A stretch of 64,000 nucleotides of DNA from a phage. The notes below the pieces were generated by a model that saw nothing but the letters and a program-made list of their open reading frames with translations, did no database searches and was not told the DNA's origin. The stretch is from sequence record PX421306.1; one strand, 5' to 3'. Positions 1,222-48,396 of this stretch are shown in pieces; the stretch's first letter is position 1; every line of letters begins with the position of its first letter. The position numbers and the translations under genes were made by a program.

Positions 1222-1608
1222 TTATTCGAGGGAAAGAAGATATTTACTTTGATAAAACATCCCAGTAATATCATCTATCGTGCTTTGAATGGCTGGAGGC
1301 ATTTCTTTATAAATGCTGTTAGATTGGTCTAGTATGCGATCAATCATTTTAATTGTGTCGGTAGGAAGTTTACTAGCATCTGGAATTGAAGGTGTATATT
1401 TTCTACCAGAATACCCTAAATATTGCTCACCAAATTTATCAATCAAATCTGGCAACTCAGAGAAAATAAAATCGTATGCCTTGTGTCTAGCATAACTTTT
1501 AGTTTCAAAATGCGCAGAATGAAAATAAGCTTGTGCAGCCATTAATAAACCTAAGTATTCATCTGCCTTTGAAGGTTTTCCACTTTGTGAAAAGTCGCTG
1601 AATTTCAT
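1222..1608 (-). CDS. hypothetical protein downstream of rI
   Basis: 128-aa ORF; stop followed by hairpin-T terminator at 1193-1216; 4-nt overlap with rI. Confidence 0.6.
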
Positions 1609-1898
1609 TCAGTCTCCAATTTAATGTTCATAATTCTAGCGTATGATTGTGCCATCTCCGCGCCTCGCTCTATACATTCAAAATCGGAAGAGCACGGGTC
1701 ATTTTTATAAGTCGTTCGCATAAAACTATAGAACTGTTCAGATGATTCTACGCTTTTATTTTCAAAAAGCATATAAACATGTCTAATGCCAGATTCCATA
1801 AATTTATCAAAATGAGGATCGACATTTGCTTCAATCGGTGGAGATAAAGCAAACGCTAATCCTAGCATGGCAAATAGTGCCGTTGCTTTTAAGGCCAT
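1605..1898 (-). CDS. rI: lysis inhibition regulator RI (periplasmic antiholin)
   Basis: 97 aa with N-terminal signal/SAR segment MALKATALFAMLGLAFALS; matches T4 RI as I recall it, in length and sequence. Confidence 0.88.
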   Translation of the reverse strand: MALKATALFAMLGLAFALSPPIEANVDPHFDKFMESGIRHVYMLFENKSVESSEQFYSFMRTTYKNDPCSSDFECIERGAEMAQSYARIMNIKLETE

Positions 1899-1910
1899 AA
1901 AGGCCTCCTA

Positions 1911-2123
1911 TCATTTTTGTCCTGTATTTACTTTGTGCCGATGCACGGCCTTAACTTTATCAAGGTATTTTTCAAAATTTCGCAATCTAGTATAGTCTGC
2001 CGGAGATTGGTTGAGTGATACTTCTCGACGCAAAGCTGAAATGATATTTCCAACTTCCCTACGAATTTCATCTAATTGAAGAACAGTAAGATTGCGAAGT
2101 TGCTTTTCAGTTAATTGTAGCAT
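1911..2123 (-). CDS. hypothetical protein between rI and tk
   Basis: 70-aa basic ORF in the position of T4 rI.1. Confidence 0.55.
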
Positions 2124-2165
2124 ATATACCCCTTTAGTTAGATAAACCTATTTATAACTTTTGCA

Positions 2166-2747
2166 CTAACCGAGCTTTTTAGTTAATTCATTCCAATGTT
2201 TTCTGCACAAAGAAACATAAATTTCATCACCAATACAGATTTGATTACCTTCTTTAACTGGTGTTCCATCTTCCATTAATCGAGCTGTCATAATCGCTTT
2301 TTTACCACAATGACAAACTGCTTTTAGTTCAATAAGTTTATCTGCAATCGCCAAAAGTTCTTTAGAACCTTCAAATAATTTTCCAGCGAAATCAGTCCTT
2401 AGTCCATAAGCCATAACAGGAACATTGTATGTATCGACAATTCGGCTTAATTGATGCACCTGTTCAGTTTTTAAAAACTGAGCTTCATCTACAAATACGC
2501 AATGAATATCTTTTTGTGCTTCAGCCCATTTATAGAACTCAAAAATATCCATATCATCCGTAATAATATTCGCTTCCTGTTTAATTCCAATGCGAGAAAC
2601 GACTTCACAGACAGAATCGCGAGTATCAATAGCAGGTTTAAGAACTAATACACCCATTCCGCGTTCTTTATAATTATGCGCAGCAGTCAAAAGAGAAGCA
2701 GATTTTCCAGCATTCATTGCTGCATAAGTAAAAATTAAACTCGCCAT
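2166..2747 (-). CDS. tk: thymidine kinase
   Basis: 193 aa; P-loop NAGKSASLL, FVDEAQF and C-terminal CxxC...CxxH zinc ribbon typical of type II thymidine kinase. Confidence 0.95.
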   Translation of the reverse strand: MASLIFTYAAMNAGKSASLLTAAHNYKERGMGVLVLKPAIDTRDSVCEVVSRIGIKQEANIITDDMDIFEFYKWAEAQKDIHCVFVDEAQFLKTEQVHQLSRIVDTYNVPVMAYGLRTDFAGKLFEGSKELLAIADKLIELKAVCHCGKKAIMTARLMEDGTPVKEGNQICIGDEIYVSLCRKHWNELTKKLG

Positions 2748-2756
2748 ATCACCTTC

Positions 2757-2942
2757 TTAAAGCGTATTCACATAATCTATTAATTCGTTTTCTTTCTTAT
2801 CAAACCGGTCAGCAAATTCTTCTTGCTGTTCGGGAGATAGCGGGCCGTATTCATCATAAAAGGTGTTTGCTTCTGTATGCTCATCTAGAAGTTCATGGAT
2901 AAGCTCAAACAATTTATCTTTTTGTTCTTTGCTTAGGCTCAC
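2757..2942 (-). CDS. hypothetical acidic protein
   Basis: 61-aa ORF immediately downstream of tk. Confidence 0.5.
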   Translation of the reverse strand: MSLSKEQKDKLFELIHELLDEHTEANTFYDEYGPLSPEQQEEFADRFDKKENELIDYVNTL

Positions 2943-3111
2943 AGTATGTTAATCCCCAAAAGTTTTAAAATGACTCGTTTCTGATTCATAACCGCTACGA
3001 TTGAATGACCGTTGGGGTCTTTTTGACCCGATCCAATTATAAATCCTTTTTGTGCAGAAAGTTCAATCAAAACATCAAGTTCACGTAATAATTGATATTT
3101 TAAATCATCAT

Positions 3112-3318
3112 TCATTTTGGTTTACCTTCTTTAACGAAATCAGGATAAGGATAAAATCCTGAATAAAATCCTTCACCTTTATGATTGATGCATCCTTTAT
3201 TAGAACAATAGCACCAATAATCGAAATCACAAGCCATTTCATCATTACATAAAGCAAAAACAACAGGCCATTTACACTTTTCACAATGGGCATTTTTAAG
3301 AATACTAGTTTGGCTCAT
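3112..3318 (-). CDS. hypothetical Cys-rich small protein (possible zinc binding)
   Basis: Start set at ATG 3318 (MSQTSIL...) forming ATGA overlap with upstream stop; many Cys/His (HCEKCKW...CNDEMACDFDYWCYCSNKGC). Confidence 0.5.
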   Translation of the reverse strand: MSQTSILKNAHCEKCKWPVVFALCNDEMACDFDYWCYCSNKGCINHKGEGFYSGFYPYPDFVKEGKPK

Positions 3319-4316: not shown

Positions 4317-4854
4317 TTACTATTTCCAACAGTTTATTATTTTTAAGGTAGTTAGCCTTTTCTAGGACTTCAGAAGCATATTTAGAACCTGCTTTAACAT
4401 TCCATCCCGAATTATAAGAGGATATTGCCTTTCTTATATCGCCCTTATGTATATTTAACCAATAAGAAAGTTCAATGTACGCCCAGGAAGCTGAATTGGA
4501 CCGTTTATTCAACATTCTTTTTATTTCGGCATCGGTCATATTATAACCAAGTTCCTTAACTCTTGCACGCATGGTTGGCAAATAATTTTGGAACATTCCG
4601 TAGGCATGATGTTTTGGTTTAGATTTTAAATTAACTCCGGCAGAGCTTTCTTGCCATAAAATGGCAGCCATTATATGACCTAATCCGCTCTTGTGGATAT
4701 TTTTGTGTGTTTTATATTTTCCATCCTTAGAAAATTGTTCCCCGAATTGATACGCGTAACGCATGTTATCGAGTTGGACATTACTGAAAGTATGCTCGGA
4801 GCTATGTGCCATCATAGAAATGGCCAATAGACCAGCGAGTAGTGCTTTTCTCAT
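4309..4854 (-). CDS. secreted lytic-transglycosylase-like protein
   Basis: 181 aa; signal peptide MRKALLAGLLAISMMAHS; ES...GMFQ...YNSG motif arrangement like SLT-domain murein transglycosylases. Confidence 0.6.
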   Translation of the reverse strand: MRKALLAGLLAISMMAHSSEHTFSNVQLDNMRYAYQFGEQFSKDGKYKTHKNIHKSGLGHIMAAILWQESSAGVNLKSKPKHHAYGMFQNYLPTMRARVKELGYNMTDAEIKRMLNKRSNSASWAYIELSYWLNIHKGDIRKAISSYNSGWNVKAGSKYASEVLEKANYLKNNKLLEIVND

Positions 4855-4861
4855 GCTTACC

Positions 4862-5323
4862 TCATTGAGTTTTAATTACTGCTTTAGAAGCCTTTCCTGG
4901 TAAACGACGACTGTTAATAATTGCCATCCTGCACTGAAGCGACGGGTCTTTGAACTTCGCATTAGGTTTACAAACTGTAAATCCAAGCCAAAGATTTCCA
5001 TCTGTGATTTCTAAACGTCCAGGACGATATTCAATCCCATCAATAAAATCCTCGTCAATGTCAGGACGCGGAGGCATACTCAGGAATTCATTAACTTCTA
5101 AAACATGGTCTTTTATTTTATGGAATAATTCAAAAACATATGTCTCATCAATCTCCCGTTGAATTGCACGATCAAGAAGATGTTGAGAATATTTTAGATG
5201 AAACGATGAGACCCCTGCTGCTTTTGATGCCTCACGAATCTCATTGTTAATTTGACGAAACTCCGACTCAAAGTGACGACGGAGCTTATTTCGACGGATA
5301 AAAACTTCTGTGTTGATAGTCAT
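4862..5323 (-). CDS. regB: RegB site-specific endoribonuclease
   Basis: 153 aa; translation matches T4 RegB as I recall it (MTINTEVFIRRNKLRRHFESEFRQ...). Confidence 0.92.
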   Translation of the reverse strand: MTINTEVFIRRNKLRRHFESEFRQINNEIREASKAAGVSSFHLKYSQHLLDRAIQREIDETYVFELFHKIKDHVLEVNEFLSMPPRPDIDEDFIDGIEYRPGRLEITDGNLWLGFTVCKPNAKFKDPSLQCRMAIINSRRLPGKASKAVIKTQ

Positions 5324-7517: not shown

Positions 7518-7991
7518 TTATTTGAATGATTTGACGTACTGAATAGAACCTTTACTATTCACGAAAGCGATTTTACCATTCTTATTATACATGGTAGCAG
7601 TACGCTGATAGCCATAAGTTTGCTTACCGGATTGATAACCAACTAATGCGAAATTATCTTCACCCATTTTATTCTGTTTAGCACGAATACGTTCATGACC
7701 GTGTGCCATAAGAACCTTAGCATCACCAGTTGAAATTGATCTACGAGTTTTTTCATCTTCAACTGTATTAACAAAGTCGTCAAATGAATCAAATTTAGCA
7801 TGGGATTTATTATACAGTTTTCCATCTACTGCATAATTATATCCCTGTACATCCATCTCAACTTCTGTACCATCATCCAATACAGCAGTGATTTTTTGAC
7901 CTTTTTTAAATTTCAAAAGATCAGTAAAAGATTCAGCAATAATTTGAGAATTAATAGCTGCTTCAGTAATAAATTCTTGATATGTTTTCAT
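7518..7991 (-). CDS. internal head protein (IPIII-like, capsid-targeted)
   Basis: 157 aa; N-terminal MKTYQEFITEAA leader matching the T4 capsid targeting sequence cleaved by prohead protease after E. Confidence 0.75.
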   Translation of the reverse strand: MKTYQEFITEAAINSQIIAESFTDLLKFKKGQKITAVLDDGTEVEMDVQGYNYAVDGKLYNKSHAKFDSFDDFVNTVEDEKTRRSISTGDAKVLMAHGHERIRAKQNKMGEDNFALVGYQSGKQTYGYQRTATMYNKNGKIAFVNSKGSIQYVKSFK

Positions 7992-8005: not shown

Positions 8006-8323
8006 TTATTCTTTAGGGAAGTTTTTAGAATATGCATCATAAAGCTTATTTCCAATACGGCGGAAAACTCTAGCCGCAAAACGATTTTCTGGGTTTTTAA
8101 TCATGATTTGCATCATATAAGTACCCGCGTCAGAAAGAGCTTCTTCATAGTACCCATTAATTTCTTTAAGAGTCCTACGTTTACCACCAGGACCATCAAC
8201 AGTAATTTTCCATTTACCTGTAGAAGTGCGGCTCGGTGGCTCAACTTGTTCAATCCAAATATAACCTCCTTCTACACGTTGTCCTTGGGCAGATTCTGCA
8301 ATAAATTCTTTATACGTTTTCAT
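8006..8323 (-). CDS. internal head protein (IPII-like, capsid-targeted)
   Basis: 105 aa; N-terminal MKTYKEFIAESA targeting leader. Confidence 0.75.
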   Translation of the reverse strand: MKTYKEFIAESAQGQRVEGGYIWIEQVEPPSRTSTGKWKITVDGPGGKRRTLKEINGYYEEALSDAGTYMMQIMIKNPENRFAARVFRRIGNKLYDAYSKNFPKE

Positions 8324-8332
8324 ATGTTTCCT

Positions 8333-8749
8333 TTAAATGTAAATATTTTTGCCGTAATACTTGTACCAGTGTGGCTTCATTAAAATTTTTTCATCGAGTC
8401 GTTGTTGACTCAATTTAATAGCTGATTTGCATGGATTATAATCATTTTTCCATTCTGCTGGAATATCACTGATGTCAGGAACTTCAGTATCTTTTATACT
8501 AAACCCACGTTTTAAGCATTCCGTTATAATGTCTGATTGACGCTTTCGCAAAAATTCTAACTTATCGTAAAAGAACGTAACATGACCAGAACCTAAAATA
8601 AACTCGGAAGATATTTTAAAATCTTTAACCCGCTTACCATTTGCCACGTGTTTACGAACTATACCAAAAACACGTGGCAATTCACGGTATTCTGCGATTA
8701 AATGCTGATCAGCAAGTTCAGATACTAAAGTCAAATTAATACGAGTCAT
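8333..8749 (-). CDS. denV: endonuclease V (pyrimidine dimer DNA glycosylase)
   Basis: 138 aa; [17 protein letters not shown]... closely matches T4 endonuclease V as recalled. Confidence 0.92.
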
Positions 8750-9339: not shown

Positions 9340-9795
9340 TTAAAAGAGGCTGTTCATTATTCGGTAAAGTGAAGGACCCATCACATATTGCCACTGAGTA
9401 CGAGGAATAAGGGCAAAAGCATCCATCTCTGGAATCATAACACCATCTTTATTTTCAAAATAAGACTCGCAATGGCAATTTCTAAACATCTCATGCTCTA
9501 CTGGAATCGTATAATAAAATAACTGTAAGTCTTTATTACTAGAATATTTAAATACACCTAGGTCTTCTAGAAGGTCTGGACTATAATTGCTAAAACCGGT
9601 CTCTTCTAAACATTCTCTTCGTGCTGCATCTAGTGCGCTTAAATCAGAATTTTCTACGCGCCCCCTTGGAATATCCCAGCGATGTGCCATCATTCCAGGC
9701 TTACGAGAACCAGTAACTCGTCCCATAAATAAATCTTTATCTTCTGTCATAAAGATAATACCAGCTGATAATGTTTTCATTTTAATTTCCTGCAT
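9340..9795 (-). CDS. nudE: Nudix hydrolase
   Basis: 151 aa; Nudix box GRVENSDLSALDAARRECLEETGF; position downstream partner of e as in T4. Confidence 0.85.
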   Translation of the reverse strand: MQEIKMKTLSAGIIFMTEDKDLFMGRVTGSRKPGMMAHRWDIPRGRVENSDLSALDAARRECLEETGFSNYSPDLLEDLGVFKYSSNKDLQLFYYTIPVEHEMFRNCHCESYFENKDGVMIPEMDAFALIPRTQWQYVMGPSLYRIMNSLF

Positions 9796-10265
9796 TCGGT
9801 GATAAAATTATTTAAATTTTGAGTATATTTCTTTTCATCAAAAATCTTTTGCTGCCTACGTAACCGCCATGGCATTTCAATGAACACGCACCATATTCCT
9901 GATAGTACTGCTGCTGTAAAAATATTAACAAGTATAATTAAAAGAATCCAATCTTCCGTTCTGCCTACTGGACTTTCTCCAAAGAAGCAAAATACAAATG
10001 ATGTCACAGGAAAACTAATAATATACCACAGAATAACCTTCTTATCTGTGAACCAATCAGCGTTCGTTAACTTAGCGCGACCATTTCGAATACACACGAA
10101 TTTATCATCTGTTACAGTAGATGGCTTAACTGCTTGATATCCCATTCTAAACTCCCTAATCAGCAAATTTTTCATATCTTCGGAACAGCCATTCCAGTCA
10201 ACTCTATCGACTGAAATGCCATCGTCCCCATCATCTAAATCATACCAGCGAGTTTTTAAAATCAT
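9777..10265 (-). CDS. small membrane protein (2 predicted TM helices)
   Basis: 162 aa; hydrophobic segments VILWYIISFPVTSFVFCFFG and WILLIILVNIFTAAVLSGIWCVFI; C-terminal ...ECRKLK tail. Confidence 0.55.
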   Translation of the reverse strand: MILKTRWYDLDDGDDGISVDRVDWNGCSEDMKNLLIREFRMGYQAVKPSTVTDDKFVCIRNGRAKLTNADWFTDKKVILWYIISFPVTSFVFCFFGESPVGRTEDWILLIILVNIFTAAVLSGIWCVFIEMPWRLRRQQKIFDEKKYTQNLNNFITECRKLK

Positions 10266-13283: not shown

Positions 13284-13351
13284 TTATTTCTCCGCTTCTG
13301 TGATTGTTTTGATAAATCTATAATAACACCATCCTTGGTGTTTGTACACAT

Positions 13352-13615
13352 TTATTTCATATTATTGAAATATTCTTCTGCGATTTCGTCGTTATCATGA
13401 TAAACTTTAGAAGACAGTTTAACATAACCTTCTGCTGTGAACATGTTAATCACAACCTTTACAGTATACCACTGACCGTCTTCATTACCCATTACTGCGT
13501 AAGTTTCAAACATCGGATGATCAGGACCGATAACTTTAATATCATTCACTGTACGACCGAAATCTTCTGAAACGCATTTCATAAAGAAGTTGAACAGTTC
13601 GCCGTAATTATCCAT
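13352..13615 (-). CDS. hypothetical protein
   Basis: Start set at internal ATG 13615 (MDNYGELF...) with GGAGAATGAA RBS, downstream of early-type promoter at about 13655-13695. Confidence 0.5.
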   Translation of the reverse strand: MDNYGELFNFFMKCVSEDFGRTVNDIKVIGPDHPMFETYAVMGNEDGQWYTVKVVINMFTAEGYVKLSSKVYHDNDEIAEEYFNNMK

Positions 13616-13654
13616 TTCATTCTCCAAGTTGTTTTTCTGTATCAGTAGTTGATA

Positions 13655-13695
13655 GTTGTATAGTACCATGGAAGAACAGGGATGTAAACAGTTTT
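13655..13695 (-). promoter_or_regulatory. early-type promoter
   Basis: Minus-strand GTTTAC (13684-13689) and TACTAT (13660-13665). Confidence 0.5.
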
Positions 13696-13822
13696 GTGAA
13701 AAATTTTTTAAAAAGTTTTAGGGAATTCTAGGGAAGGGAGGGGCAATTAAAAGGTAGGATAATATATTATAAAGGGTATAAACTAAATGATGCCTAGAGA
13801 GATCCAGAAAGGCCTAGATGCC

Positions 13823-13847
13823 AAAAAGCCCTATCATTTAGATAGGG
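13823..13847 (-). terminator. intrinsic terminator after internal-protein-like gene
   Basis: Hairpin CCCTATC...GATAGGG followed on minus strand by CTTTTTGG. Confidence 0.55.
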
Positions 13848-13855
13848 ATTTAAAA

Positions 13856-14419
13856 TTATTTATCTAGTTTAGTTATTATAGCTTCTGCGGCAGCTTTTAG
13901 CTTAGATGCGGTGTTAATACGATTTTTAATTTCAGTATACGCATCGCCAAGAACATCAAGGCTATCAGAATAAACACTTACGCTATTGCGTTCGCTATTT
14001 GAAATAGAACCTTTAGTTTTACGATCAAAATCGGTGTACACGTCTTGAAGATCACGGGCTGCCTTCTTTGCATCATCCAATGCATCAAGAGCTTTATTCA
14101 AAGCATTAACGTATTTTTTAGTGTCGAACATATTCTTAGAAATTTTAACAGGTGCGCGTTCAGGAGTAGCTAATGCAGATTTAGGAACCTGAGCGCCAGA
14201 TGCCAATTTCTTAGAAATTTTGAAAAACGCTTTATTGAATTTATTTTCTTGACTCATCGTAAAAGAACTATTATCGATGTTGTACATTTCAATAGCTTTA
14301 GCTTTCCACTTAAGAAAATCGCCGCGGTCTTTTGGGTCCAAGTGGAAGAATACTTTAGTAAGATCTGCTTCAGATGGTAATTTTGCTGCTTCGGTTAAAA
14401 ATTCGGCATAGGTTTTCAT
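13856..14419 (-). CDS. internal-protein-like capsid-targeted protein
   Basis: 187 aa; N-terminal MKTYAEFLTEAA capsid-targeting leader; flanked by terminator hairpins. Confidence 0.7.
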   Translation of the reverse strand: MKTYAEFLTEAAKLPSEADLTKVFFHLDPKDRGDFLKWKAKAIEMYNIDNSSFTMSQENKFNKAFFKISKKLASGAQVPKSALATPERAPVKISKNMFDTKKYVNALNKALDALDDAKKAARDLQDVYTDFDRKTKGSISNSERNSVSVYSDSLDVLGDAYTEIKNRINTASKLKAAAEAIITKLDK

Positions 14420-14507
14420 TTAAAATCCTTGAAATAATCTATCGGTTGGTTATTAATTATTTATTACTTTGTTATTATCCGTAACAGCATTCTCTATGTG
14501 ATTCAAA

Positions 14508-14536
14508 CTAAAAACCCCAACCTTTCGGTCGGGGCT
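14508..14536 (-). terminator. intrinsic terminator
   Basis: Hairpin CCCCGACCGAAAGGTTGGGG then UUUUU on minus strand; duplicate copy at 15065-15094. Confidence 0.65.
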
Positions 14537-14543
14537 AAGAATG

Positions 14544-15017
14544 TTATTTGATTTGTTTAGCAGACCAAATGCGGTCTTTGATGATTTTTTGGATGTCTTC
14601 AACATACTCTAGGTCATGAGCATGTGGGTTATCTTTGAAACTATAAGCACGAGCTAGTTTTTGGCCTTCAGTTTTGATTACTAAAAGCTCTTTAAGGATA
14701 GCTTCATATTTAGCGATAATTCCTTTAACAATATTTTTTTCTTGTGCAGCTTTAGGATCTGCTTTAGGAGCAGGTTTACCCGAAGCCTTTGCAAAAGCAG
14801 CACCAGTAGCAACTAAACTTTTCCAGGCCATACTAACCGCATTTCCTGTAAATCCTTCTGCTTTCATGTCGCGAGCAAACTGGAATCGTGATTCGTCAGA
14901 AGCATCTTTATAGGAATATTTACCCGCTGCAATGGCTGCTTTTGCGACAGCTTGAATTTCGGTGCTAGATGCTTCATTTAACACCGCTTCATTTAAAAAT
15001 TGAGCATATGATTTCAT
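14544..15017 (-). CDS. internal-protein-like capsid-targeted protein
   Basis: 157 aa; N-terminal MKSYAQFLNEAV leader of same type; Ala/Lys-rich body. Confidence 0.7.
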   Translation of the reverse strand: MKSYAQFLNEAVLNEASSTEIQAVAKAAIAAGKYSYKDASDESRFQFARDMKAEGFTGNAVSMAWKSLVATGAAFAKASGKPAPKADPKAAQEKNIVKGIIAKYEAILKELLVIKTEGQKLARAYSFKDNPHAHDLEYVEDIQKIIKDRIWSAKQIK

Positions 15018-15064
15018 CTTATTTCCTGTTTTAATTCGTGATTTAATATACTACTATATTTATA

Positions 15065-15094
15065 CTAAAAAGCCCCAACCTTTCGGTCGGGGCT
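15065..15094 (-). terminator. intrinsic terminator
   Basis: Same AGCCCCGACCGAAAGGTTGGGGCT hairpin + U-run, upstream of the IP-like gene. Confidence 0.65.
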
Positions 15095-15097
15095 AAG

Positions 15098-15240
15098 CCT
15101 TGCGGCAACCTTGTCGGGGTTCCACCTGCTAAGGCAAGTGTTTGTACGAAACGCCGGGATTCGAACCCGGTTATTAAGCAGTTGACGCTACTTAATATTT
15201 TTAAAAGGCCATATCTCGACCATATCCGAACGTTCCGTCA
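15098..15240 (-). ncRNA. tRNA-like stable RNA candidate
   Basis: Perfect T-arm-like CCGGGTTCGAATCCCGG (minus strand, 15154-15170) with pairing 7-nt acceptor-like strands, but non-canonical D/anticodon region; boundaries approximate. Confidence 0.3.
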
Positions 15241-15405
15241 AAAACGCTACTCGGCTTACGGCAAAGATATTTCCTCGAATCGATAATTCGGTGCGCCGTT
15301 TCTGCTGTGATGTAAGAGGGCATCAACAAATCATAAAGATTTATTAACACAATTCCTTACCCAGGGAACATCAGTCCGACGACTTACCGGTAGCGACCCG
15401 GTTTC

Positions 15406-15756
15406 TTAATATTCTTTTAAAGCATCAATCTGTTCACGGCGTTTACGCCATAAATCAATTGCTTCATACGCAGATTCAGCATTTCGAATTGGACGGCATT
15501 TATATAAAGACTTATGATTTTGATATTGTGTAGATAACGGAATTTTATCTAAAAGGTCTTTACGTTCAAAGTATTCGTAACCATCTAAGCCAAATGAACG
15601 ATTTTTGAGAAATTGCCAATGACCGTATTCGTTTTCGACATAAACATAATCTGCGTGCTGATAAAGCAAATTAATTACGCGTTCAGAAATAACAGTGTCA
15701 TTATGATTAAAATAGAATGTTAAATCATGAACTACTAAATAAACATTACCTTTCAT
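15406..15756 (-). CDS. hypothetical protein within tRNA region
   Basis: 116-aa ORF between tRNA-Arg and the tRNA-like element. Confidence 0.5.
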   Translation of the reverse strand: MKGNVYLVVHDLTFYFNHNDTVISERVINLLYQHADYVYVENEYGHWQFLKNRSFGLDGYEYFERKDLLDKIPLSTQYQNHKSLYKCRPIRNAESAYEAIDLWRKRREQIDALKEY

Positions 15757-15772: not shown

Positions 15773-15848
15773 TGGTCGAGGCAGTAGGGATCGAACCTAC
15801 GACCTAGGACTTAGAAGGTCCTTGCTCTTCCTTCTGAGCTATGCCTCG
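15773..15848 (-). tRNA. tRNA-Arg (anticodon UCU)
   Basis: Hand-folded cloverleaf: acceptor CGAGGCA/TGCCTCG, D-stem GCTC/GAGC, anticodon loop CUUCUAA, T-loop TTCGATC, encoded CCA. Confidence 0.8.
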
Positions 15849-15852
15849 GATT

Positions 15853-15927
15853 TGGCGGACGTGATAGGATTCGAACCTATAACCAATCGCTTAACAGGCG
15901 ATCGCTCTGCCATTGAGCTACACATCC
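15853..15927 (-). tRNA. tRNA-Asn (anticodon GUU)
   Basis: Hand-folded: acceptor GGATGTG/CACGTCC, anticodon loop CUGUUAA, T-loop TTCGAAT, encoded CCA. Confidence 0.7.
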
Positions 15928-15931
15928 AAAT

Positions 15932-16018
15932 TGGTGGGGAGTGATGGAGTCGAACCACCCGAGTCGCAATGACAATGGATTTACAGTCCACACCGCTACC
16001 TCTACGGGATAACTCCCC
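15932..16018 (-). tRNA. tRNA-Tyr (anticodon GUA), long variable arm
   Basis: Hand-folded: acceptor GGGGAGT/ACTCCCC, anticodon loop CUGUAAA, long variable arm, encoded CCA. Confidence 0.7.
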
Positions 16019-16031
16019 TTAATTCTTAATT

Positions 16032-16106
16032 TGGTGGCCCTGGGTGGAATTGAACCACCATCTGGCGATTATGAGTCGCTTGCTTGAACCTTCCAGCTAC
16101 AGGGCC
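16032..16106 (-). tRNA. tRNA with CAU anticodon (Met or lysidine-modified Ile)
   Basis: Hand-folded: acceptor GGCCCTG/CAGGGCC, anticodon loop CUCAUAA, T-loop TTCAATT. Confidence 0.7.
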
Positions 16107-16107
16107 T

Positions 16108-16183
16108 TGGTGCTGATTGACGGAATCGAACCGCCGACCTTCTCATTACAAGTGAGTTGCTCTACCTACTAAGCTAAATCAGC
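16108..16183 (-). tRNA. tRNA-Thr (anticodon UGU)
   Basis: Hand-folded: anticodon loop CUUGUAA, T-loop TTCGATT, encoded CCA. Confidence 0.75.
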
Positions 16184-16188
16184 AAAAC

Positions 16189-16278
16189 TGGCGGAGGCGA
16201 TAGGATTTGAACCTATGAGTCGCCGGAACGACTGCCGGTTTTCAAGACCGGTGCATTAAACCACTCTGCCACGCCTCC
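16189..16278 (-). tRNA. tRNA-Ser (anticodon UGA), long variable arm
   Basis: Hand-folded: acceptor GGAGGCG/CGCCTCC, anticodon loop CUUGAAA, long variable arm. Confidence 0.75.
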
Positions 16279-16281
16279 AGT

Positions 16282-16354
16282 CTCCATACAAGGATTTGAA
16301 CCTTGGACCTCCTGATCCCAAATCAGGCGCTCTACCAAACTGAGCTACACGGAG
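16282..16354 (-). tRNA. tRNA-Pro (anticodon UGG), CCA not encoded
   Basis: Hand-folded: D-arm TAGCTCAGTTTGGTAGAGC, anticodon loop UUUGGGA; abuts 5' end of tRNA-Ser (dimeric precursor arrangement). Confidence 0.7.
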
Positions 16355-16364
16355 TAAATTAAAT

Positions 16365-16438
<74 letters not shown>

Positions 16439-16443
16439 AAATT

Positions 16444-16530
16444 TGGTGCGAGAAGTGGGACTCGAACCCACAAGGAAATCATTCCGCAGCATTTTAAGTG
16501 CTGTGCCTTTACCAATTTGACCATTCTCGC
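16444..16530 (-). tRNA. tRNA-Leu (anticodon UAA), long variable arm
   Basis: Hand-folded: GCGAGAATGGTCAAATTGGTAAAGG..., anticodon loop CUUAAAA, T-loop TTCGAGT. Confidence 0.8.
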
Positions 16531-16531
16531 G

Positions 16532-16604
16532 CTGGGAATAAAGGACTCGAACCTTTGCATCCTGGAATCAAAATCCAGTGCCTTACCAACTTGGCTAATT
16601 CCCA
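16532..16604 (-). tRNA. tRNA-Gln (anticodon UUG), CCA not encoded
   Basis: Hand-folded: TGGGAATTAGCCAAGTTGGTAAGG..., anticodon loop UUUUGAU; directly abuts tRNA-Leu (dimeric precursor). Confidence 0.75.
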
Positions 16605-17632: not shown

Positions 17633-17920
17633 TTACAAAAGATTTTTAGCAATAATCTTGAGATGTGCCGCAGAAATGTGTTTAGCTTTAAACAACGCAG
17701 TTTCTTCAGCAGGAGAGATAATGATTGTAGCACCATCCTTTTTAGCAGACCACCCATCACCTAGGTAAACAGTACCTTTGATTTCTTCGCCATCAACCAA
17801 ACTAATCATTGGTTTACCTTCTCGTCCTTTATTTGCTTTAATAACTTCAGAAGTAAGAGTAGCTTCAGTAATAGTAGAAACCGGGGTAGTTGTAGAAGTA
17901 AATTCTTTGAAAGTTTTCAT
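17633..17920 (-). CDS. ipI: internal head protein I (injected, anti-restriction in T4)
   Basis: 95 aa as in T4 IPI; 19-residue leader MKTFKEFTSTTTPVSTITE then A, consistent with the IPI prosequence. Confidence 0.8.
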   Translation of the reverse strand: MKTFKEFTSTTTPVSTITEATLTSEVIKANKGREGKPMISLVDGEEIKGTVYLGDGWSAKKDGATIIISPAEETALFKAKHISAAHLKIIAKNLL

Positions 17921-46493: not shown

Positions 46494-46918
46494 TGCTTCT
46501 GATCCCTGAAACTCATGAATTAGTTCTCGAGAATGTCGAAGCACTTATTCCTGAAGCACAGGGTCGCTTTGACGAATTGTCTTCTGCTTTAAATAAAGAC
46601 GATATAAATACAATTATCGAGAATATGCTTGATGATGAAACTGATTTAGCAGTTGCATTAGCTTCTATTAATGAAAATATGCCGTTAAATGAATTCATTG
46701 TTAAGCATGTTTCAGCTCGTGGTGAAATTACACGTACTAAAGACCGCAAAACGCGCGAACGTAATGCATTTCAAACCACTGGGCTGTCTAAAGCAAAACG
46801 TAGACAAATTGCTCGCAAAGCTACCAAAACGAAGATTGCCAATCCAGCAGGTCAATCTCGTGCTCAGCGTAAGCGTAAAAAAGCTCTTAAACGCCGTAAA
46901 GCATTAGGATTAAGCTAA
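46493..46918 (+). CDS. 68: gp68 prohead core protein
   Basis: 141 aa as T4 gp68; basic C-terminus. Confidence 0.88.
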
Positions 46919-47556
46919 TGAATGAACCCCAATTACTAATTGAAACTTGGGGTCAACCTGGCGAAATTATTGATGGCGTGCCAATGCTTGAATCTCATGA
47001 TGGAAAAGACTTAGGTTTAAAACCTGGTTTATACATCGAAGGAATATTCATGCAAGCGGAAGTCGTCAATAGAAATAAACGTCTTTATCCAAAACGCATA
47101 TTAGAAAAAGCGGTAAAAGACTATATTAATGAGCAAGTTTTAACTAAACAAGCTCTCGGAGAATTAAATCATCCTCCACGCGCTAATGTTGACCCGATGC
47201 AAGCCGCTATCATTATAGAAGATATGTGGTGGAAAGGAAATGACGTATACGGACGAGCTCGTGTTATTGAAGGTGACCACGGTCCTGGAGATAAATTAGC
47301 AGCTAATATTCGTGCCGGATGGATTCCAGGAGTTTCTTCTCGTGGATTAGGTTCATTGACTGACACAAATAAAGGTTATCGTATCGTAAACGAAGGATTC
47401 AAATTAACTGTAGGTGTTGATGCAGTATGGGGTCCAAGTGCTCCAGATGCATGGGTAACTCCTAAGGAAATTACCGAATCACAGACGGCGGAAGCCGATA
47501 CAAGTGCCGATGACGCCTATATGGCTCTCGCAGAGGCCATGAAAAAAGCGTTATAA
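46918..47556 (+). CDS. 21: gp21 prohead core protease
   Basis: 212 aa as T4 gp21; synteny 68-21-22-23. Confidence 0.93.
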   Translation: MNEPQLLIETWGQPGEIIDGVPMLESHDGKDLGLKPGLYIEGIFMQAEVVNRNKRLYPKRILEKAVKDYINEQVLTKQALGELNHPPRANVDPMQAAIIIEDMWWKGNDVYGRARVIEGDHGPGDKLAANIRAGWIPGVSSRGLGSLTDTNKGYRIVNEGFKLTVGVDAVWGPSAPDAWVTPKEITESQTAEADTSADDAYMALAEAMKKAL

Positions 47557-47586: not shown

Positions 47587-48396
47587 ATGCTTAAAGAACA
47601 ACTGATTGCTGAAGCGCAAAAAATTGATGCTTCCGTTGCTCTTGATAGTATTTTCGAATCAGTTAATATTTCTCCGGAAGCAAAAGAAACTTTCGGCACT
47701 GTATTCGAAGCTACCGTCAAGCAGCACGCCGTTAAATTAGCTGAATCTCATATCGCTAAAATTGCTGAAAAAGCAGAAGAAGAAGTAGAAAAAAATAAAG
47801 AAGAAGCCGAAGAAAAAGCTGAGAAGAAAATCGCTGAGCAAGCTTCTAAATTCATCGACCATCTTGCGAAAGAATGGCTCGCCGAAAATAAATTAGCAGT
47901 TGATAAAGGCATCAAAGCCGAACTGTTTGAATCCATGCTTGGTGGATTAAAAGAGCTCTTTGTTGAACACAACGTTGTTGTTCCAGAAGAATCAGTTGAT
48001 GTTGTGGCTGAAATGGAAGAAGAGCTGCAAGAACATAAAGAAGAATCAGCTCGTCTGTTCGAAGAACTCAATATGCGCGACGCATATATCAATTATGTGC
48101 AGCGTGAAGTGGCATTGAGCGAAAGTACTAAAGATCTGACTGAGTCTCAAAAAGAAAAAGTCTCTGCTCTGGTCGAAGGTATGGATTATTCAGATGAATT
48201 CTCAAATAAATTGAGTGCCATCGTAGAAATGGTGAAGAAGTCTAATAAAGATGAAAGCACTATTACTGAGAGTATAAATACTCCTGATACTGAAGCAGCC
48301 GGACTGAATTTCGTCACTGAAGCTGTAGAAGATAAAGCTGCACCTGGTGCAGAAGATATTGTAAGTGTATATGCGAAAGTCGCATCTCGTTTCTAA
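47587..48396 (+). CDS. 22: gp22 prohead core scaffold
   Basis: 269 aa; long acidic helical scaffold sequence. Confidence 0.93.
   Translation: MLKEQLIAEAQKIDASVALDSIFESVNISPEAKETFGTVFEATVKQHAVKLAESHIAKIAEKAEEEVEKNKEEAEEKAEKKIAEQASKFIDHLAKEWLAENKLAVDKGIKAELFESMLGGLKELFVEHNVVVPEESVDVVAEMEEELQEHKEESARLFEELNMRDAYINYVQREVALSESTKDLTESQKEKVSALVEGMDYSDEFSNKLSAIVEMVKKSNKDESTITESINTPDTEAAGLNFVTEAVEDKAAPGAEDIVSVYAKVASRF

Follow-up and report, generated by a model that had tools for sequence, protein, structure and literature searches.

Two internal-protein-like genes with capsid-targeting leaders in a terminator-delimited cassette absent from phage T4

A cassette of two leader-bearing genes at a site without a gene in T4

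We analyzed a 64,000-nucleotide (nt) stretch of phage DNA (sequence record PX421306.1; hereafter the window) and focused on two small open reading frames (ORFs) on its minus strand, ORF157 and ORF187, each of which begins with a leader resembling the capsid-targeting sequence (CTS) of the internal proteins (Ips) of phage T4. ORF157 (14544–15017, minus strand; 157 amino acids, aa) and ORF187 (13856–14419, minus strand; 187 aa) were identified from the ORFs and their translations, and both match the family phrog_2280 (E values of 5.7e-60 and 1.4e-53, respectively). An earlier examination of the letters without database searches, which we call the sequence-only reading, had reported two leader-bearing ORFs here with three terminator hairpins around them; we recovered both ORFs and all three hairpins, the latter within a few bases of where they had been placed.

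Read along the coding strand, the layout is hairpin, TATAAATA, ORF157, hairpin, AATAAATA, ORF187, hairpin. A terminator scan, together with alignment to the e.8-rnaC gap of T4, located the upstream intrinsic terminator, AGCCCCGACCGAAAGGTTGGGGCT followed by a T-run, at 15071–15094 (minus strand), where it ends the tRNA/rnaD/rnaC transcription unit; T4 has the same hairpin. The scan and T4 alignment also revealed a second AGCCCCGACCGAAAGGTTGGGGCT-type copy, different by one base, between ORF157 and ORF187 (14513–14536, minus strand), and the scan found a third hairpin that differs from the other two, CCCTATCTAAATGATAGGG plus a T-run, downstream of ORF187 (13829–13847, minus strand). By motif search and direct reading, we found a T4-type late promoter box, TATAAATA, at 15057–15064 (minus strand), 47 nt upstream of the ORF157 ATG and separated from it by 39 nt that include an AGGA Shine-Dalgarno sequence. 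We take TATAAATA to be the T4 late-promoter box. ORF187 has a late-promoter-like box of its own, AATAAATA (14458–14465, minus strand; differing from TATAAATA at one position), 46 nt upstream of its ATG, with 38 nt including an AAGGA Shine-Dalgarno sequence in between. The AATAAATA-type box recurs at an equal distance in contigs L005 and L010, and late-type boxes lie 36–47 nt upstream of homologous genes in contigs from other genera; for the classical ip genes, we found no late-type box out to 130 nt. These promoter-box motifs suggest that ORF157 and ORF187 are expressed late.

To delimit the cassette, we compared the window with T4 62000–76000 by BLASTN and aligned the junctions. Window positions 13320–13847 correspond to T4 70330–70854, and 15062–15406 to T4 70825–71168. 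Because the T4 matches stop at 13847 and restart at 15062, the whole cassette, 13848–15061 (no strand assigned), is an insertion of ~1.2 kb relative to T4, with the rnaC terminator on one side and the sequence upstream of e.8 on the other. T4 has a single hairpin (AGCCCCGACCGAAAGGTTGGGGCT plus T-run) after rnaC and no gene between e.8 and rnaC, so the description of these as extra internal-protein genes was correct with respect to T4. Collinearity with T4 resumes within the T-run of the CCCTATCTAAATGATAGGG hairpin, downstream of ORF187. As a separate observation, recombination between the near-identical hairpins at 14513–14536 and 15071–15094 would cleanly excise ORF157, and all three states of the site exist: no gene (T4), ORF157 only (phage fD1), and both genes.

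Leaders match the capsid-targeting sequence and contain gp21-type motifs

The leaders of ORF187 (MKTYAEFLTE/AA, where the slash marks predicted cleavage) and ORF157 (MKSYAQFLNE/AV) align with the MKTYQEFIAE/A of T4 IPII and IPIII, and Y4, F7, L8 (Ile in T4), and E10 are present in both. Mutational work on IPIII showed that residues 4 and 7 serve mainly in targeting and residues 8 and 10 in processing (PMC9026906). The prohead protease gp21 cuts after Glu in [I/L]-x-E, as at ITE-6 and LTE-619 of Alt (PMC5694885). Motifs of this type occur at LTE-10 in ORF187 and at LNE-10 in ORF157, which has a second one at LNE-15 (MKSYAQFLNE/AVLNE/A). The critical leader residues are kept in homologues only 24–56% identical, from four genera, while the bodies diverge.

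To estimate how often such leaders arise by chance, we scanned a six-frame translation of the 64-kb window with the pattern MK.[YF].[EQ]F[LIVT].[EST]. We observed five matches, compared with a mean of 0.01 and a maximum of 1 in 200 Markov-1 simulations, and none in the reversed window sequence; with five observed against 0.01 expected, the leader motif is therefore far beyond chance. The matches are exactly the five ip-type ORFs of the window: ORF157, ORF187, a genuine ipI at 17633–17920 (Pfam IPI_T4, E 2e-53), and two ORFs at the ipII/ipIII locus (7518–7991 and 8006–8323). A literature search for the leader strings returned nothing relevant.

Prohead assembly machinery is encoded in the same window. 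The gp21 prohead protease (46918–47556, plus strand; Peptidase_S77, Pfam E 1.5e-111) is the enzyme expected to remove the leaders, and the gp22 prohead scaffold (47587–48396, plus strand; T4_CASP, Pfam E 1.6e-89; phrog_237) is part of the core with which CTS leaders are thought to associate. The window also codes for gp67 (GP67), gp68 (phrog_1049), the portal (Portal_T4), and capsid proteins.

Mature proteins are small, basic, and predicted to be helical

With the leader removed, ORF187 would be a 19.7-kDa protein with an isoelectric point (pI) of 9.46 and 14.7% Lys, and ORF157 a 16.0-kDa protein with a pI of 9.40 and 13.6% Lys, similar to T4 IPIII (20.4 kDa, pI 9.65, 13.7% Lys); IPII is likewise close. 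The mature parts contain zero or one internal [LIV]xE site, the one in ORF157 being LKE110. Leader residues, gp21 and gp22, late boxes, and composition therefore agree with the description of the pair as CTS-tagged, internal-protein-like genes in a terminator-delimited cassette, and at the level of sequence ORF157 and ORF187 have every hallmark of the Ip class. They appear to be new, unannotated members of it, probably distinct from the named ip4–ip12.

Searches of Pfam, NCBIfam, and PDB sequences with ORF157 and ORF187 gave nothing at threshold; the best Pfam match of ORF187, cytochrome b562, scored 17 bits against a cut-off of 30 and is generic helical noise. An exhaustive HMMER search with ORF187 recovered one distant relative, P0027 (metagenome; 31% identity, full-length), and nothing cellular. 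The sequence-only reading had recognized nothing similar to either body, which stands for these three databases and is qualified by the match to phrog_2280, itself a family without an assigned function. Homology of the mature domains to ordinary scaffold proteins, which that reading had considered, did not appear in Pfam or PHROGs, and we rejected a scaffold identity: neither protein matches T4_CASP, GP67, or a scaffold PHROG, whereas gp22, gp67, and gp68 of the window give strong matches. For both proteins, AlphaFold predicts the same all-helical architecture: after the disordered leader come a small N-domain made of helices, a disordered linker rich in Pro, Ala, and Lys, and, at the C-terminus, a long helical hairpin. 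Structure prediction, proposed earlier as a check, yielded an architecture and no informative fold match.

ORF157 and ORF187 are probably distant paralogues

We then compared the two proteins with each other. BLASTP aligns only their leaders, as do shallow profiles, and to this extent the earlier statement that the bodies are unrelated is right. It does not extend to the profile level, where both match phrog_2280 along its length (ORF187 covering positions 1–178 of 178 and ORF157 1–172) and show weak C-terminal similarity. With a more diverse ORF187 profile, hhalign aligned the two at full length with 93.8% probability. Without leaders, the alignment was confined to the C-terminal hairpin, with 9.5% probability (E 0.0034) and a score of 24.5, compared with a maximum of 15.5 for 20 column-shuffled controls and 12.1 for a reversed one.

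Other proteins that match phrog_2280 are P0022 (Klebsiella phages), P0027, and a 189-aa protein of L012, a contig like Yersinia phage fHe-Yen9-01. The L012 protein is of the ORF187 type (24% identity to ORF187 over 190 residues, E 4e-4), and 10 bp separate its gene from an ORF157-type gene downstream, with one late box in front of the pair and one terminator behind it. Because they share membership of phrog_2280 and a predicted architecture, and because their counterparts are adjacent in L012, ORF157 and ORF187 are probably distant paralogues.

Distribution, selection, and a third site for CTS genes

To examine how widely the two genes occur, we searched 50,697 phage records with tblastn, finding ORF157 in 512 and ORF187 in 165, all but one of the latter at least 95% identical. 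ORF157 is found at 71–74% identity in PhAPEC2- and APCEc01-type (Mosigvirus) phages, and Klebsiella phages and one Raoultella phage match its N-terminal half only; a protein-database search added a relative in Yersinia phage fHe-Yen9-01. Most sequenced Tequatroviruses carry ORF157, many therapeutic candidates among them. Both genes are absent from T4, fD1 carries ORF157 only, and the two are dispensable and polymorphic among close relatives. Judged by these records, T4 is the exception in being without ORF157, and the gene has been little studied probably because it is missing from this model phage.

We sampled annotations from 120 of the 677 phage-record matches and from the 15 members listed per cluster. 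In the 120 sampled rows, the name is 'hypothetical protein' or something equivalent ('Phage protein' and 'protein of unknown function' are examples), or the record is unannotated at that position, and neither these rows nor the 15 members listed for each of the two clusters name an internal protein. Cluster inspection did reveal one UniRef entry, from a Klebsiella phage and a distant ORF157 relative, that is named 'Internal head protein'; its cluster representative, P0022, is 53% identical to ORF157 over 60% of ORF157. Pairwise ratios of nonsynonymous to synonymous substitution rates (dN/dS) were 0.04–0.22 for ORF157 and ~0.1 for ORF187, indicating that both encode proteins and evolve under purifying selection.

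Over the 1.5 kb around the cassette, identity to Tequatrovirus genomes, among them those of Shigella phage SH-2 and Escherichia phage vB_EcoM_G50, is 99.1%, and by this measure the window is a Tequatrovirus genome. T4 gene order is kept around the cassette, all on the minus strand, running from gene 1, 57A, 57B, and ipI through trna.4, trna.3, and trna.2 to the tRNA cluster, and on through rnaD, rnaC, and e.8 down to e.1 and e. The sequence-only reading had put the cassette next to the tRNA cluster, which is right only loosely: the nearest tRNA, for Arg (15773–15848), is ~750 bp away, with the rnaC/rnaD homologues and a 116-aa ORF in between. In six related loci from several genera that we scanned for tRNAs, the last tRNA is followed, a few hundred bases downstream, by the ORF157-type gene. 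Ip genes have been described in the literature at two loci (PMC12373910). From these positions, the site downstream of tRNA/rnaC represents a third, conserved location for CTS genes.

Probable packaging and processing, and the evidence from virions

Taken together, the leaders, the composition of the mature proteins, and the promoter boxes make it likely, in our view, that ORF157 and ORF187 are packaged and processed T-even internal proteins. Each gene, insulated by terminators, would have its own TATAAATA-type promoter driving late transcription, and the 10-residue N-terminal CTS would bring the protein into the prohead's scaffolding core during assembly. There, gp21 would cut after Glu10 (LTE/A in ORF187, LNE/A in ORF157) and probably also at LNE15/A in ORF157, and the mature, basic, Lys-rich proteins (~19.7 and ~16 kDa) would stay in the head with the DNA and be ejected into the host with it. 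Inside the host, by analogy with Ip1–3, they would most plausibly neutralize a defense acting on the incoming modified DNA. For this phage, packaging and cleavage of the two proteins, their injection, and an anti-defense activity are what we infer; the last, a role as injected anti-defense effectors, is drawn from analogy, and we put it forward as a tentative proposal that falls somewhat short of being favored.

Direct evidence for packaging comes from phage fD1 (phiD1, HE956711), whose g140 is an ORF157 homologue with 97% identity. In LC-MS/MS of purified virions, g140 was scored as particle-associated, as was g129, a 'head protein' that corresponds to a 157-aa CTS protein at the ipII/ipIII locus (PMC8309999 Table S3). 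The g140 result is the only direct evidence for packaging, and its specificity is weak. For cleaved ORF157, we predicted the semi-tryptic peptides AVLNEASSTEIQAVAK and ASSTEIQAVAK, which can be sought in the public fD1 dataset (PXD026812). The main text of the fPS-65 paper contains no proteome terms.

Several observations weigh against packaged anti-defense proteins, beginning with the virion data themselves. In the fD1 proteome, 113 of 277 phage proteins were flagged, DenV, lysozyme, and thymidine kinase among them (PMC8309999), indicating that the assay is low in specificity, and 672 host proteins co-purified in the same particle study; for ORF187, we found proteomic data from no virion. Homology of the mature domains to T4 IPI, IPII, or IPIII was considered and rejected, as BLASTP aligns the leader only, PF11634 is not matched, and the PHROGs differ. 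Structure searches with the ORF157 model returned only self-hits or thousands of generic helical hairpins. Among comparable proteins, the products of ip4–10 from other phages had no reproducible effect on the GmrSD classes tested (Silas et al. 2025, PMC12373910). Finally, strong purifying selection, prevalence, and cross-genus conservation are a poor fit to a fast arms-race gene; selection and conservation of this kind agree rather better with a target that is itself conserved, or with a physical function inside the head, than with an arms-race factor.

Alternative readings of the two proteins

One way to accommodate the conservation is a version of the injected-effector proposal in which phrog_2280 represents an injected module of two paralogues, conserved at a third ip locus not described before and spanning Tequatrovirus, Mosigvirus-like, Klebsiella, and Yersinia T4-like phages and directed at a conserved target or at a defense other than the GmrSD enzymes blocked by Ip1–3. 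A conserved host factor, or a defense beyond those enzymes, would explain purifying rather than diversifying selection. ORF157- and ORF187-type proteins might act together, since their architecture is shared and one genus has their genes co-transcribed. We regard this version as speculative and rather unlikely. The conservation can also be read physically, with the packaged proteins neutralizing charge, organizing or lubricating the condensed DNA, or assisting its ejection, which is the classical proposal for T4 internal proteins. In T4 heads, only the Lys of internal proteins contacts DNA phosphates (PMC3012670), and both proteins, basic and rich in Lys, have helical parts joined by a disordered Pro/Ala/Lys linker. 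The dN/dS of ~0.1, the 512 records with ORF157, the extension of its N-domain into Klebsiella and Yersinia T4-like genera, and a gene pair kept in a Tegunavirus-like contig point the same way. However, T4 packages its DNA normally without either gene, the occurrence of ORF187 in only 165 records marks the genes as dispensable and polymorphic, and the three T4 Ips, long held to be structural, all proved to be specific anti-restriction proteins. A purely physical role therefore seems improbable to us.

The same leaders and helical folds could belong to accessory components of the prohead core or scaffold, like gp67, gp68, and gp22, that are degraded by gp21 and expelled rather than injected. The predicted all-helical fold with its long helical hairpin, the late expression indicated by the promoter motifs, and the internal LKE110 site of ORF157 would suit such proteins. 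We nevertheless consider this very unlikely, given the lack of any match to a scaffold family in Pfam or PHROGs when the window's gp22 and gp68 match strongly, the presence of no more than one internal [LIV]xE site, the detection of the fD1 homologue in mature virions, and the distance of the genes from the head-gene cluster. A reading in which nothing is packaged is that the leader is a remnant of cassette shuffling and the proteins are ordinary cytoplasmic late proteins. Cassettes with shared 5' ends can indeed spread by recombination in the hyperplastic regions of T4-type phages (PMC2839356), yet the persistence of the critical leader residues in divergent homologues of four genera, the limitation of the motif in the window to ip-type genes, and the fD1 virion evidence all speak against it, leaving this the least credible account, with a very low probability.

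Comparison with known internal proteins and modular cassettes

All three T4 internal proteins have been known since 2025 as inhibitors of different GmrSD-type Type IV restriction enzymes (PMC12373910). Each of Ip1, Ip2, and Ip3 inhibits one GmrSD variant, with Ip2 acting on the ECOR21 enzyme and Ip3 on the ECOR17 enzyme, while several active variants are without a known inhibitor (PMC12373910). IPIII is needed on ECOR17 and works in the cytoplasm without its CTS (2022; PMC9391042). Given the roles of Ip1–3 and the GmrSD variants without an inhibitor, CTS-tagged 'hypothetical' proteins form a short, testable list of counter-defense candidates. The modest new point added here is a conserved third ip locus, absent from T4, with a probable pair of paralogues; if the proteins were purely structural, the result would be an ordinary one. 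The leaders of ORF157 and ORF187 are, in addition, naturally occurring versions of the CTS with which foreign proteins are loaded into T4 heads.

Among the T4 proteins, IPIII and IPII are alike to ORF157 and ORF187 in having a 10-residue CTS with the same key residues, similar size, pI, and Lys content, and small genes that are non-essential, vary in their presence, and lie on the same strand in the same genome arm. Their mature parts, by contrast, show no detectable similarity and belong to phrog_5341 and phrog_7857 rather than phrog_2280; their locus lies between denV and e instead of after the tRNA/rnaC cluster; and ORF157 and ORF187 differ from them in each having a late-promoter box and a terminator of its own. 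Ip2 and Ip3 have GmrSD targets, whereas nothing in the sequences or models of ORF157 and ORF187 points to one. IPI/IPI* (PF11634), which inhibits the GmrSD of strain CT596, is also a small, basic, gp21-processed, injected protein with a CTS, the feature shared by ORF157 and ORF187; it differs in its 19-residue leader and compact alpha/beta fold, compared with a 10-residue leader and a predicted all-helical fold with a disordered linker.

The ip4–ip12 genes of Repoila and colleagues were reportedly described at the ip1 locus, not at the tRNA/rnaC site. Those numbered ip4–ip10 (Repoila et al. 1994, cited in PMC12373910) resemble ORF157 and ORF187 in being unrelated, small, polymorphic ORFs that share only the CTS, and the variant Ip genes of T-even phages were identified through this signal sequence (PMC12373910). 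T4 Alt likewise has an N-terminal propeptide, cut at ITE-6, is packaged and injected, and contains an LTE-type gp21 site identical to that of ORF187, but it is a 70-kDa enzyme, and ORF157 and ORF187 have no enzymatic domain. In its organization, the cassette recalls 'morons' and the PeSL cassettes, in which a stem-loop terminator plus a promoter enclose one gene, and which have been proposed to drive modular shuffling in T4-type phages (PMC2839356). As in PeSLs, the terminator of the ORF157 cassette is duplicated at its borders, and the insertion junctions lie inside the hairpin and the T-run; PeSLs, however, carry early sigma70-type promoters, whereas the boxes of ORF157 and ORF187 are of the late type.

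Neighboring features and related contigs

At the ipII/ipIII locus of the window, the ORF at 7518–7991 (minus strand; 157 aa) begins with MKTYQEFITE/AA and matches phrog_3155 ('internal virion protein'). The ORF at 8006–8323 (minus strand; 105 aa) begins with MKTYKEFIAE/SA, matches phrog_3966 ('unknown function'), and is a further internal-protein candidate. The two ORFs stand in for T4 ipIII and ipII. The order here differs from that of T4, in that denV (8333–8749) adjoins e and the ip genes lie beyond denV. Contigs L005–L013 contain many small CTS ORFs (~1500–3300 and 9600–10100 in each locus; 52–103 aa) whose bodies are unrelated, located at the ip1 locus and in other places; their leaders include MKTYQEFIAE, MKTFKEFINE, and MKSYQEFITE, and several recur in differing combinations between contigs.

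The tRNA cluster of the window (15773–16604) has 10 tRNAs, including Asn and Tyr, versus 8 in T4, and the window is without the segB homing endonuclease of the T4 tRNA region; the close relative G50 has tRNA-His in addition to the window's set. The 116-aa ORF between the rnaD homologue and tRNA-Arg (15406–15756, minus strand) has no assigned function. In L010, ARAGORN called a 94-nt 'tRNA-Stop' with anticodon UUA (4782–4875, plus strand) directly upstream of an ORF157-type gene whose identity to ORF157, 76%, is like that of the Mosigvirus copies. The call could represent a suppressor-like tRNA, or else a tRNA-like RNA of the rnaC/rnaD type that was miscalled. On the 2.6-kb metagenomic contig L003, P0027 (1419–2033; leader MITFNEFLNE/SEMINE/A) is followed by a 144-aa ORF (2092–2526, plus strand) with the leader MITFKQFLNE/S and precomputed Pfam matches to ART-PolyVal and DUF3990, which looks like a CTS-tagged ADP-ribosyltransferase-like protein and is possibly a packaged enzyme, as is Alt.

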